From the NCBI GenBank assembly GCA_039815185.1, contig JBCBZT010000070.1, forward strand, positions 1-30,831: DNA of 30,831 nt, given 5' to 3'. The translations under genes were made by a program, and so were the position numbers. The DNA comes from Cyanobacteria bacterium P01_A01_bin.123. GTDB taxonomy: Bacteria > Cyanobacteriota > Cyanobacteriia > Phormidesmidales > Phormidesmidaceae. Positions within the stretch are counted from its first letter, which is position 1, and every line of letters begins with the position of its first letter. Under the pieces are notes generated by a model, which worked only from the letters and a program-made list of their open reading frames with translations, searched no databases and had not been told where the DNA came from. Positions 9,749-14,127 of this stretch are shown one piece after another.

Positions 9749-10138
9749 TCAGTAAATCCCCCCGTCTACCACTTGAATCGGATTGCCCTGGTCATCAGCG
9801 CTATCTACCCAAGCCTCAAGCGTGACCCGCCACTCTGCTGAGGCAAACACCCGGCCAAACAGGTTGTGTTTAAGCATGATGTCGCGGAACAGGTAACCAG
9901 GTCGATCGAACACATCAGGCACGGGCATGTAGATGATCGTGTCATCCTCACTGGGGTAAGCGCGGTTAAAGAGGGAAAGCGAACCAGGGTAGAAGCGGGC
10001 GGCAAAAATGAGGTAGGCACGGCCTAGCGGTGGCGTGTAGTCCTGAGTTAACCGGAACAGCTCAGACTCGCCTACGGGCGTCGGGAAGGCTGTCCAGTCA
10101 TAGCCAGGGGTTAGCGTTCCCAGTTCTAACCACGGCAT
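9749..10138 (-). CDS. Hypothetical beta-rich protein, putative virion component
   Basis: 129 aa, overlaps the upstream gene, ends VDGGIY like many fibre-anchor proteins. Confidence 0.7.
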   Translation of the reverse strand: MPWLELGTLTPGYDWTAFPTPVGESELFRLTQDYTPPLGRAYLIFAARFYPGSLSLFNRAYPSEDDTIIYMPVPDVFDRPGYLFRDIMLKHNLFGRVFASAEWRVTLEAWVDSADDQGNPIQVVDGGIY

Positions 10139-10431
10139 GACACAGGCAGTAGTAGGCCAGATTCATTGGACACAAACGGGATGCCCTGGTCAATCACATA
10201 AGCGATGTTTGCCTCAGCAGCATCTAACCAGGGAGCAGCACCGATGCCCTGTTCTTCAAGCATGTCAAACAGCACATCACTAGGGGTGGTGCCCTCCAGC
10301 CACCCCATGATCGCATTCTGGCGTTGAGCCAGCATCTCAGTTTCCCGACGTTCGTCACCAGCATCGAAGTCTGGATGCTGGCGGGCGAACGTTAGGAAAG
10401 GGTCAAAAACGTCGAAACCCTTAGTCATCAA
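10126..10431 (-). CDS. Acidic hypothetical protein
   Basis: 101 aa, AGGGGG RBS, operon position. Confidence 0.7.
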   Translation of the reverse strand: MMTKGFDVFDPFLTFARQHPDFDAGDERRETEMLAQRQNAIMGWLEGTTPSDVLFDMLEEQGIGAAPWLDAAEANIAYVIDQGIPFVSNESGLLLPVSCRG

Positions 10432-10439
10432 CTTCCCCC

Positions 10440-10991
10440 TTAAACTGGTGCCCTTTCGCGGCTCAAACTGACACGATTGACCGAGTTAGCACCTGCTGTG
10501 GCCTGCAAGACAGCAGCTTTAACCGCGTTAAAAGCGTCAATCTGGTCATCAGTGGCCGTGTTGCGGCCAAAGGGGCAGCTATCGCGATCTCCGGTGTAGT
10601 TCAAGTACTGCAACCCGGTAATATCGCTTGTAGTCACGTTGACGGCGCGGGTTGCATTCCGAAACCAAACCACACGGGCAGCTCTAAACCCTCGCTCAGT
10701 GACCACTGTATTCGCACCCAAAGTATCTCCAACTTGAGCCCCGGTTCCTGCTCCATTGATGTAAGTTGAAAGTGCGGTATAACTATCAGGATTGGCCTTA
10801 ACGGGGACAAGTTCATCAGTTGCGATGTCAAACCCAAAAGGCGTGATATAAACCTGTAGCGTCAGGTTCCTTGGCCCTTGTTGACCGATGCGTCGGGGAC
10901 GTGTCGCACTGGTTTGCAAATAGTTAATGTAGTTGGTGAGACCTTGGTTATAATAAGCCCCTTGCCGAATCCTTGAAAATCTCTGAGCCAT
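10440..10991 (-). CDS. Hypothetical protein, candidate major structural protein
   Basis: 183 aa, Arg-rich N-terminus, Thr/Ala/Gly/Asn-rich body, preceded by its own 110-bp intergenic region. Confidence 0.75.
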   Translation of the reverse strand: MAQRFSRIRQGAYYNQGLTNYINYLQTSATRPRRIGQQGPRNLTLQVYITPFGFDIATDELVPVKANPDSYTALSTYINGAGTGAQVGDTLGANTVVTERGFRAARVVWFRNATRAVNVTTSDITGLQYLNYTGDRDSCPFGRNTATDDQIDAFNAVKAAVLQATAGANSVNRVSLSRERAPV

Positions 10992-11926: not shown

Positions 11927-13811
11927 CGGGACTAGCTCTATCAGTATCGACTAACTGAACCTCTGGCGACTCAGACGCGTTAACGGCTTCATTTGCAGCG
12001 GTTTGAATCGGAACGTTGTCATCCTGGGTGTTGGGGGTGAAGTCCGCGATCGAGTCTCTGAATCGCTGGCGTTGCTCTCCCAGCTCAGAGATTTCTTGCT
12101 GCACTTCGCGGATCTCACCTGTGACCATAGCGTAACTGCTTGCCGTGTCTTCAGCCGTCTCTAGGCCGTCCAGGATGCGGCGATACCGACGCCTCACCGC
12201 GTCTTGAGCCTGCATTCTCTCTTGCATCCAGGGGTAGGCATTAAAGCCAACAACCCCCCAGCGCTTGAGGGCGTTGCCGATGCGCCCAGTATTCTCGCCG
12301 ATCCACTCCATGACCTCTTGTGACCCATCGTGGATGCTGCGGATTGTCCAAACGATCATGGATGCAGACTGCACAATGCGATTGGCTTTGGTGTAGGTTT
12401 CGCGGATATCGTCATAGACATCCTGACCCAGAATGCCCACGATAAAGCCGTTTAGGGCATCTCCAACGATTTCATTGACGTTAAGGGGGTTCCCTTCCTC
12501 ATCGTCAATGCCAATGATGGCTAGGCCGTTACTCACCACATACCCCAAGGTCTCTGCAACATCTCGGGAAACCATAGACGCATTGTGCAACACGGTGATT
12601 AGGGTCAGCGCGTCTAGCACTTTTTGCAGCCGTGTTGTTTTCCAAGCCTGCTCAGCGAAGTTTTGAATCTGATTTAGCTTGGCCAAGATGCTCGCCGTAC
12701 TAGCCCCCTCAGCCATTAGTCCGGGGATGTTTTGCCGTAGAGAATTGTCTATAGCCCTCTGTATACCAGGATTACAGCCACAGTTGTTGGTGGGCGTAGG
12801 TGGCGTAGGTGGCGTAGGCGGAACCCTGGGAGCGGGCTGACTCAGAGGGGGTACCGATGGGCCTGGGTTGCCTCTAGTCCTACCAGCTAAGCCAGCTAAG
12901 CCAGCTAGACCCAAACCAGCCAAAGCAGGAGGAAGCCAAGAAGGGTAAGGTGGTCTGTCCGTGTCGGGCTCTACGGGTTCAGGGGATGGAGTAGGTGGAA
13001 CCGCTGGCGTGCTGTTCGGTGGTGCTGATGGAGTAGCTGGCCTAGGAGGTGTCCTAGGTGCGGTGGTAGGGGGGTTGCTTGTGGGGTTCAGAACAGGAGG
13101 CGAAACCAATCCAGGAGGTCTATTCCTTCCTGGCCTAGGGTCTATATCAGGCTCCCCATCTGCACGCTCAATTGTTGGGCCCGTACTAATCTGCTTAGCG
13201 TCACCGATTGGAGAATCACCCGTCCATACAGTGCAAGGCCCACCATAAAAAGTGCCTGGGTTCCCCGCTGCATCCGAAGCCTGAATCACCAGTCCCCATG
13301 AGATGCTACCCAGTGAGCCCCTGCAAAACTGAGGGGAGACGGAGCGAACAGGGCCATAGACTAAAGCTTCTCTAGTGCCGTTAAACTGTGAACCCTGAAT
13401 ATCGGCGGTCGCTGTAACTCGGTACTGCACACCCGGAACCTGACCGCCCTGACCTGAGCCAGGACTAATGGGAATGGGTTGAGCAGCTTGATTCATGAGG
13501 GCTTCCCTCCCCCCAGTCCTCCTGTTTCGGTAGTCGTTGAATCCGCCGCCCCCTGGATATTCAATACCAAGCAGGGGGCGCACTACGTTGTCACCAACCA
13601 GGAAGCCACCACCTAAAGCAGCGGTACCGAGCACACCTATAGCGCCTGCTGAACCAACACCCGCAGCACCTGCACCTGTACCAGTTAGCCCTAACGCTGG
13701 GATTCCAGTAGACGTAAGTGCTGGTGCCGCTGTAGTCGGTAATCCAGCTATAGCACTAGCTGCTGGTGAACCCGCTAGTGACGAAAGTATTCCCCCCGCT
13801 ACTGCTGGCAT
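11913..13811 (-). CDS. Large Gly/Ala- and Pro-rich protein with hydrophobic segments, putative entry/attachment protein
   Basis: 632 aa: G/A-rich hydrophobic N-terminus, Cys-containing beta domain, Pro-rich linker, LAGL repeats, helical C-terminal half. Confidence 0.8.
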   Translation of the reverse strand: MPAVAGGILSSLAGSPAASAIAGLPTTAAPALTSTGIPALGLTGTGAGAAGVGSAGAIGVLGTAALGGGFLVGDNVVRPLLGIEYPGGGGFNDYRNRRTGGREALMNQAAQPIPISPGSGQGGQVPGVQYRVTATADIQGSQFNGTREALVYGPVRSVSPQFCRGSLGSISWGLVIQASDAAGNPGTFYGGPCTVWTGDSPIGDAKQISTGPTIERADGEPDIDPRPGRNRPPGLVSPPVLNPTSNPPTTAPRTPPRPATPSAPPNSTPAVPPTPSPEPVEPDTDRPPYPSWLPPALAGLGLAGLAGLAGRTRGNPGPSVPPLSQPAPRVPPTPPTPPTPTNNCGCNPGIQRAIDNSLRQNIPGLMAEGASTASILAKLNQIQNFAEQAWKTTRLQKVLDALTLITVLHNASMVSRDVAETLGYVVSNGLAIIGIDDEEGNPLNVNEIVGDALNGFIVGILGQDVYDDIRETYTKANRIVQSASMIVWTIRSIHDGSQEVMEWIGENTGRIGNALKRWGVVGFNAYPWMQERMQAQDAVRRRYRRILDGLETAEDTASSYAMVTGEIREVQQEISELGEQRQRFRDSIADFTPNTQDDNVPIQTAANEAVNASESPEVQLVDTDRASPDATP

Positions 13812-13812
13812 A

Positions 13813-14127
13813 TTAAACCTCCAAATATCCTGTTGGTGCGTTACCGATCGCTAAGTCAGTTGCGTACATGTAAATGGGTAACCCTCCACTATTCACAGCA
13901 GAGTCAAGGGGCACGGATGCACGAGTGAGGATTCGACGTGTTCCCGACGCATCGGTGAATGTATCTGCAATGGAAATTTGCCGCACTCCAGTGTCGTTGA
14001 TGGTTGCAGGCAGCTCATTGTAGAGTCCCCCACCTAGCATCTCATTCAGAATTAACGAACTCCAGACGTGAAGCTTTTCAACTGTATCTATCCCGCTGGG
14101 GATGTTTGCAAGGTTAAGCGTGACCAA
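13813..14127 (-). CDS. Small hypothetical protein, first gene of the putative structural operon
   Basis: TTG start with AAGGGAG RBS; 104 aa; 1 bp from the next gene. Confidence 0.75.
   Translation of the reverse strand: MVTLNLANIPSGIDTVEKLHVWSSLILNEMLGGGLYNELPATINDTGVRQISIADTFTDASGTRRILTRASVPLDSAVNSGGLPIYMYATDLAIGNAPTGYLEV

Follow-up and report, generated by a model that had tools for sequence, protein, structure and literature searches.

The window analysed here is a contig of 30,831 nucleotides (C112, taken whole; GenBank JBCBZT010000070.1) from Cyanobacteria bacterium P01_A01_bin.123, whose genome measures 8.1 Mb with 50% guanine-plus-cytosine (GC). On its minus strand it carries a compact set of genes that, judged from sequence, is probably a virion module of a hitherto undescribed type, with protein D as the leading candidate for its main protein. 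The genes are lettered here by their products, A (104 amino acids, aa), B (632 aa), C (274 aa), D (183 aa), E (101 aa), and G (129 aa). They are read in the order A, B, C, a gap, D, E, and G, and fibre genes follow. The A gene (13813-14127) begins with TTG, is the first gene of the operon, and encodes an acidic protein. B (11913-13811) has a Gly/Ala-rich hydrophobic N-terminus, a Pro-rich linker, and a conserved C-terminal part of about 290 aa. C (11102-11926), which is coupled to B, has an N-terminal helical bundle and an alpha/beta domain. A 17-bp palindrome (11055-11071), whose dyad is kept across relatives, lies within the 110-nt gap ahead of D. D itself (10440-10991) is basic, with an isoelectric point (pI) of 9.8, and has an alpha/beta fold without match. 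E (10126-10431) also begins with TTG and is strongly acidic (pI 4.1). G (9749-10138) is beta-rich by sequence pattern and shares its slot with another family, F. All six genes are single-copy in the source genome.

A preliminary description of this DNA had proposed an orphan block of five coupled genes, A to E, that was likely to contain an unknown capsid. The five open reading frames (ORFs) are present on the minus strand at the sizes that it gave. Their coupling holds in two groups, as A and B are 1 nt apart, B and C overlap by 14 nt, and D and E are 8 nt apart. It does not hold across the 110 nt before D, a gap that had rightly been described as separate to this gene. The extent of the block, 10126-14127, was too short; the E gene overlaps the sixth conserved gene, G, and the fibre-like genes come next. 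Nor are the proteins orphans. Searches gave 75 matches among 280 candidates for D and 373 among 682 for C, and a profile search with C led to 645 clusters at 50% identity. The proteins were said to have no recognisable motif, and none of the five ORFs A to E has a match in Pfam, PHROG, or NCBIfam at E<=0.001. Confident matches to non-structural enzymes were searched for and none was found. The A gene had been singled out for its ribosome-binding site. It does lead the block and has AAAGGGAG upstream, but the site is not special, since the comparable motifs of the B and E genes are as good. Just upstream of A, two 22-bp direct repeats, 28 bp apart, can be seen by eye (14147-14168 and 14175-14196) and could be a regulator site.

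The median ratio of nonsynonymous to synonymous substitution rates (dN/dS) among relatives is 0.07-0.18 across the module genes, which argues that these ORFs are more than chance. Given as median (number of pairs), the values are C 0.07 (71), B 0.11 (29), D 0.15 (63), E 0.16 (56), F 0.18 (72), G 0.09 (10), and A 0.15 (4), all from pairs picked by similarity of C, which favours C. Relatives of C occur in 43 of the 401 sampled genomes of the phylum and relatives of D in 39. A species-level genome scan returned 66 loci, each with a cyanobacterial title (66/66), and metagenomes add 66 loci. The hosts include Nostoc, Calothrix, Crocosphaera, Microcystis, Dolichospermum, and Nodosilinea. Gene order was counted around 146 distinct C genes, with the loci that have enough flank as denominators. 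Downstream of C, D is found in 107/128 loci, E in 89/109, and F or G in 96/109. Upstream, B is found in 104/124 and an A-type gene in 60/69. The A slot can hold A, A2 (often in two copies), or A3, which is an internal tandem duplication. Most of the loci that miss B belong to a divergent subgroup (L083, L084, L086, L087, L092, L093, and L100), in which C is longer (350-440 aa) and two other large genes stand in B's position. The first gene of this subgroup encodes two tandem repeats of about 90 aa (hhalign 97.7%).

The genes for replication and maintenance vary from locus to locus. They include several types of primase-helicase, full integrases or recombinases of about 190 aa, and ParAB on plasmids. 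Two circular plasmid records have module genes; pHT582-1 (CP019637) carries the whole module, and pHT582-2 (CP019638) carries B and C only. The whole module is also present on a circular contig, L215 (12,287 bases, with a 127-nt terminal repeat). Another contig, L123, was considered as a second circular one and discounted, its apparent terminal repeat being a simple repeat. L215 has a short recombinase, an IS110-like transposase, and no recognised primase, helicase, or Rep; a 271-aa ORF of no assigned function may be its replication protein. In many relatives (L040, L049, L050, L094, L095, L204, L205, L217, and others), a tyrosine recombinase of about 190 aa is transcribed away from the A gene. 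A TTTACATAAAAnTGG-like motif was seen by eye upstream of A in these relatives, with a similar one about 85 nt further, and the pair may represent a resolution site or a promoter switch. No description of the module family was found in the literature, with subscription papers and preprint supplements outside reach. Going by gene order in the relatives, genes A to E belong to a module that is common to many small cyanobacterial mobile elements.

The gap before D recurs in this family, in which the other neighbouring genes of the module from B onward are coupled. The median spacing is 2 nt between B and C, -1 nt between D and E, -1 nt between E and F or G, and 109 nt between C and D (n=122). The dyad in the C-D gap is mostly centred on TA, and its arms co-vary between lineages. 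At least eight of its nine pairs are formed in 55 of 113 distinct gaps (6.6% in controls) and all nine in 17 of 113 (0.4% in controls); these are counts, not probabilities, and the related sequences are not independent. A TGnTA motif stands 34-36 nt downstream of the dyad centre in 30 of the 95 gaps with at least seven pairs. In the window, a TAnnnT hexamer was seen by eye at the same spacing from the 11055-11071 dyad. Dyad-activated late promoters are known from P2/P4. By analogy, the dyad, at about -50 ahead of an extended -10, is likely the site of an activator-dependent late promoter. The dyad varies in length by 1-2 nt between relatives, and a DNA or RNA hairpin that acts as an assembly signal is therefore an alternative.

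Structures were predicted for C and D. Both models are confident and neither monomer has a clear match among solved structures. The D model (predicted local distance difference test, pLDDT, 95.6) is alpha/beta with three helices of at least 9 residues. An Arg-rich N-terminal arm had been ascribed to D. The first 41 residues do contain 7 Arg, but the model shows an ordered helix at residues 6-26 (pLDDT about 97) and not a floppy arm. The charge pattern is a property of the whole family; D is basic (median pI 9.8, n=133), E is strongly acidic (4.1, n=126), and the A-type proteins are acidic. E is nearly always present or absent jointly with D, so it is likely a chaperone or scaffold of D. What hardly ever varies between loci is that the second half of the operon is headed by a small, basic, separately promoted protein, be it D or a replacement. 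Such a protein looks like an abundant DNA-coating protein, and this coat or core function is likely the one that D has. In 21 of 128 loci D is not the next gene after C, and some of these loci are truncated, interrupted, or rearranged. In ten others, unrelated small proteins fill the D slot and E is missing along with D. These replacements are a family of 157-160 aa (L131, L138, L139, and L194, with a longer member in L088), pairs of proteins of 112-154 aa (L049, L099, L101, and L130, with a single one in L091), and a protein of 203 aa (L224). Most have a pI of 9.4-10.2, and several are preceded by the same dyad. Searches of PHROG and of phage records matched none of them. At least three unrelated families of small basic proteins take the slot (L131:10951-11433, L130:4192-4879, L224:6076-6687, and L088:10829-11560), and each is a further candidate for a new coat fold.

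The C model (pLDDT 88) has five helices of at least 9 residues, distributed over a helical bundle and an alpha/beta domain, and has one match to an unnamed viral model. The 2H-phosphoesterase fold (YjcG, AKAP18, and the rotavirus VP3 domain) is a lead for C only. C is likely a low-copy component of the particle. Hydrophobic segments are found in 67% of the 104 long members of B. In the window copy, just one segment has KD19>=1.6; it begins at residue 55, and the C-terminus is acidic. The window copies of A, C, D, E, and G have no segment at this threshold. B is likely to be a protein for entry and membrane penetration. G and F both have an alternating beta pattern and show a weak mutual alignment of 88 columns (P 0.05), and their profiles gave nothing clear against PDB sequences. 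One relative, L122, has the G domain joined to tail-fibre sequence (E 1.5e-6) in a fusion, so G is likely, on sequence grounds, a surface or vertex protein or a shell protein. No HK97 match was found for A to G in PHROG, Pfam, or PDB sequences, nor among the listed structure matches of C or D, although an HK97 fold could still lie outside those listings.

The module is part of an integrated element. The first 43 positions of the window (plus strand) are the 3' part of a tRNA-Phe(GAA), the left attachment site. Positions 1-141 overlap the end of contig C94, which carries the intact tRNA-Phe(GAA) (blastn and ARAGORN), and the element therefore begins at the 3' end of the tRNA. A tyrosine integrase of 306 aa follows (72-992, minus strand; PHROG 1, E 3e-30). 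Replication genes are represented by an 828-aa protein with a Toprim primase and an AAA_25 helicase (989-3475, minus strand; library profile matches). The element is about 14.2 kb in size, or 17.6-17.9 kb with cargo, its right end being a candidate boundary.

The neighbours of the module are of a virion type. A fibre-like protein of 272 aa and its 152-aa partner (8310-9588, minus strand) have weak PHROG matches only, the best at 4e-6 to a family of no assigned function, with virion-structural at 0.007 and tail fibre at 0.017. In relatives, the same slot holds clear tail-fibre matches. The partner may have the role of a fibre chaperone. Tail-fibre, minor-tail, and virion-structural PHROG matches stand beside the module in relatives, as do collagen and F5/8 domains, amidase, M23, PHROG endolysins, a weak Tlde1 match, and small hydrophobic ORFs. 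Together with the integrase and the primase-helicase, the tail-fibre genes and endolysins of the relatives support a virion module. The usual capsid and packaging genes were not seen. Terminase, portal, and major-capsid families had no match at E<=1e-8 among the 150 flanking ORFs listed (of 157 in all) for 17 loci, and the circular L215 has no terminase or portal PHROG at E<=0.1. A, C, D, and E are all present in 80 loci, some of them on short contigs. Of these loci, 51 have no ORF of at least 150 aa with a Walker A motif within 6 kb; in the other 29, such motifs belong variously to helicases or host genes or occur by chance. The window does contain an FtsK/HerA-like ATPase, which matches a terminase PHROG at 7e-6 over the P-loop region only. 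It is encoded on the opposite strand and lies outside the module, with which it is not kept together in relatives, and a homologue on contig C82 occurs without the module. As 51 of the 80 modules have no nearby Walker A ORF, this ATPase is not a conserved packaging motor.

The explanation that we favour, with a chance that falls just short of even, is a provirus of a small, tailless, temperate double-stranded DNA (dsDNA) virus of an undescribed family, with D as its main particle protein. Its direct support consists of the integration site, the integrase, the primase-helicase, the fixed gene order, purifying selection, the fibre and endolysin neighbours and circular forms in relatives, the lack of a conserved ATPase, and two confident models without a clear match. 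The module likely builds a tailless particle without a DNA-packaging motor. As the predicted fold of its likely coat protein had no match in the structure searches, it would be a new kind of virus. It is possible, though rather less than an even bet, that such elements are a widespread but overlooked lineage of temperate cyanobacterial viruses outside the recognised realms. These would have 12-18 kb of dsDNA, no motor, and a basic coat of new fold. On three or more occasions an unrelated fold would have taken over the coat slot, with no change of the proteins for entry and surface.

Such a virus could work as follows. The integrase would excise a circle of 12-18 kb, which the primase-helicase would copy. 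One promoter would drive A, B, and C, with B and C made in low, coupled amounts. A second promoter, with its palindromic activator site centred near -50, would drive D, E, G, and the fibre genes at a higher level. With the help of acidic E, basic D could stay in solution up to the point at which it co-assembles with the genome and condenses it. The host-binding surface would consist of G or F together with the fibres, and B, with C as its low-copy partner, would pierce the host envelope. Release would be by lysis, as the endolysins of relatives suggest.

Several observations weigh against the favoured explanation. The D gene has no clear Shine-Dalgarno sequence in the window copy, and no holin or endolysin was recognised in this copy by Pfam and PHROG. 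The strongest conservation is that of C, not D (median dN/dS 0.07 versus 0.15, in pairs whose choice favours C). Language-model neighbours of C include two unnamed, mostly tailed-phage clusters at 0.90. An integrase, a primase-helicase, a tRNA site, and a size of 12-15 kb are also the pattern of a satellite. Unrelated proteins can take the place of D in loci that retain A, B, C, and F. For an icosahedral shell protein this is unusual, and it suits an inner core protein just as well. Since outer shell proteins are seldom exchanged on their own, D may instead form an inner nucleocapsid, with G/F or A as the shell around it. The preliminary description had placed the major capsid protein, perhaps of a new or highly diverged fold, among the five genes. 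The virion-type context agrees with this, and D, being basic, preceded by its own promoter-like gap, and confidently modelled with an unmatched fold, is the best single candidate; however, its slot is swappable, C is the most conserved protein, and G, a shell candidate, lies outside that block.

A doubtful competitor is an autonomous tailless virus whose shell is formed by the beta-rich G/F (a single jelly roll, as in portogloboviruses), A, or C, and in which D is a minor or regulatory DNA-binding protein. F or G accompanies C in most loci, including those with D replaced, and the beta pattern and weak alignment of the two families fit such a shell. A leads the operon and is often duplicated, A3 being an internal tandem repeat (hhalign 97.7%), and C is under the strongest selection. 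SPV1 combines a single-jelly-roll capsid protein with the lack of a packaging ATPase (PMC8812541). Against these points, G is fused to fibres in some relatives, which is more in keeping with a vertex than with a shell; C follows the long B gene in a coupled arrangement, without a gap of its own; and D comes first behind the conserved promoter-like dyad.

A phage satellite (P4-, PICI-, or PLE-like) is unlikely. In this reading, a tailed cyanophage would supply the motor and the shell, and the module would remodel the helper particle with a scaffold, a tail adaptor, and its own fibres. The integrase, primase-helicase, tRNA site, size of 12-18 kb, and lack of a packaging motor agree with a satellite, as do the dyad-activated late promoters of P2/P4. 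Feature neighbours of C include tail-terminator clusters at 0.80-0.82, below the 0.9 bar of the tool, but no tail terminator was among the best-ranked matches of the C model in three PDB searches. Against a satellite, the module has six conserved slots and comes with endolysins and fibres of its own, searches matched neither a small terminase nor a known satellite protein, and no phage record has relatives of B, C, D, or the D replacements. A non-viral integrative or plasmid element, with a module for cell-to-cell DNA transfer along filaments or for antagonism, is improbable. In its favour are the ATPase and the two hydrophobic ORFs of the window copy, the occurrence of all or part of the module on ParAB plasmids, and the hydrophobic segments of B. 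Against it, the trio shows no conservation with the module, which is absent where the trio recurs on C82, and tail fibres, fibre-fused G, and endolysins are virion-type neighbours.

Other genes of the window appear to be accessory or cargo. A repressor-like helix-turn-helix (HTH) protein of 101 aa (4547-4852, plus strand) resembles NCBIfam RstR at E 2e-7, below the cut-off of that family. Two hydrophobic ORFs of 97 and 155 aa and the 473-aa FtsK/HerA-like ATPase (5267-7390, plus strand) are accessory. They recur without the module at C82:175458-177051, where the match to the 155-aa ORF is split over two frames, and the trio may be a separate DNA-transfer cassette. An FHA-domain protein of 212 aa (7675-8313, minus strand; Pfam FHA, E 4e-12) is also accessory. 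Copies of the C-terminal half of the 272-aa fibre-like gene and of its 152-aa partner, 48-50% identical, lie at C130:40404-41074, which suggests exchange of a receptor-binding module with another element. Beyond 14 kb the GC fraction drops from about 0.53 to 0.40, where a XamI-type restriction endonuclease and methylase (14817-17351, plus strand) are the likely cargo of the element's right end. Fragments of the tRNA-Phe 3' end occur at 17577-17612 (a degenerate direct copy), 17818-17874 (an exact inverted copy of 57 bp), 22417-22459, and 23245-23269, and point to an integration hot spot with stacked islands. The first two (17577-17874) are the candidate right boundary. The inverted copy takes in 14 bases beyond the tRNA, and Logan contigs break there, so an inversion or a mis-join is possible. 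The XamI-type pair and a NACHT-pentapeptide protein (18120-21476) lie between tRNA fragments and are likely defence cargo. A 1346-aa protein with eCIS-core and Scabin-like domains (25373-29413, minus strand; low GC, strong skew) is likely a polymorphic toxin-type gene unrelated to the module.

It is rare for a new capsid fold to be found, and the top ranks of virus taxonomy are defined by such folds. The module family is present in about a tenth of sampled cyanobacterial genomes, yet it has no marker that virus finders use, and it might explain hidden lysogeny among cyanobacteria that form mats and blooms. Intact copies are present in cultured strains, so the question is directly testable. If its coat slot can be exchanged behind a conserved promoter, the family would also offer a clean model of how viruses acquire new capsid proteins.

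Compared with known systems, the element differs from Inoviridae/Tubulavirales in that it has no membrane-helix coat candidate and no conserved Zot/pI-like ATPase. An HUH rolling-circle Rep, as in Inoviridae and Microviridae, had no match; the replication genes are primase-helicases, with none recognised in L215. The spike protein of Pleolipoviridae has a C-terminal membrane anchor, whereas B has none. With Caudoviricetes, the element shares an integrase, a repressor, a primase-helicase, tail-fibre domains, and endolysins, but there is no terminase, portal, or HK97 capsid match and complete elements are only 12-18 kb. Tectiviridae and Corticoviridae are tailless temperate viruses of 10-15 kb with spike or penton proteins and lysis genes, and G joined to a fibre may recall their penton-like spike base. 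Unlike in these Varidnaviria, C and D are not double jelly rolls (neither is all-beta), G is too short at 129 aa, and an FtsK/A32-type packaging ATPase is not conserved. P4-like satellites and PICIs share with the element a tRNA-targeting tyrosine integrase, a primase-helicase, an HTH regulator, a size of 12-18 kb, and the lack of a large terminase, and the dyad-type late promoter of P2/P4 resembles the C-D gap. The element differs in its six-slot structural-type module, its own fibres, and endolysins. Small terminases and known capsid-size or satellite proteins had no match in the element or in the flanks of relatives, although diverged versions could escape.

SPV1 has a basic nucleoprotein inside a jelly-roll shell, an arrangement that D and G/F parallel, the jelly roll in G/F being a candidate from sequence pattern. 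No sequence similarity to SPV1 or FLiP was found, and D and C are alpha/beta proteins, not jelly rolls. The element also differs from them in its cyanobacterial host, its temperate life with an integrase, its fibres, and its peptidoglycan lysins. SPV1 (Portogloboviridae) and FLiP-like viruses are small tailless DNA viruses without a packaging ATPase, and the element has this Portogloboviridae-like feature in common with them (PMC8812541). By analogy, the closest counterparts of the element in its way of working would be tailless viruses that have no motor, such as SPV1 and FLiP.

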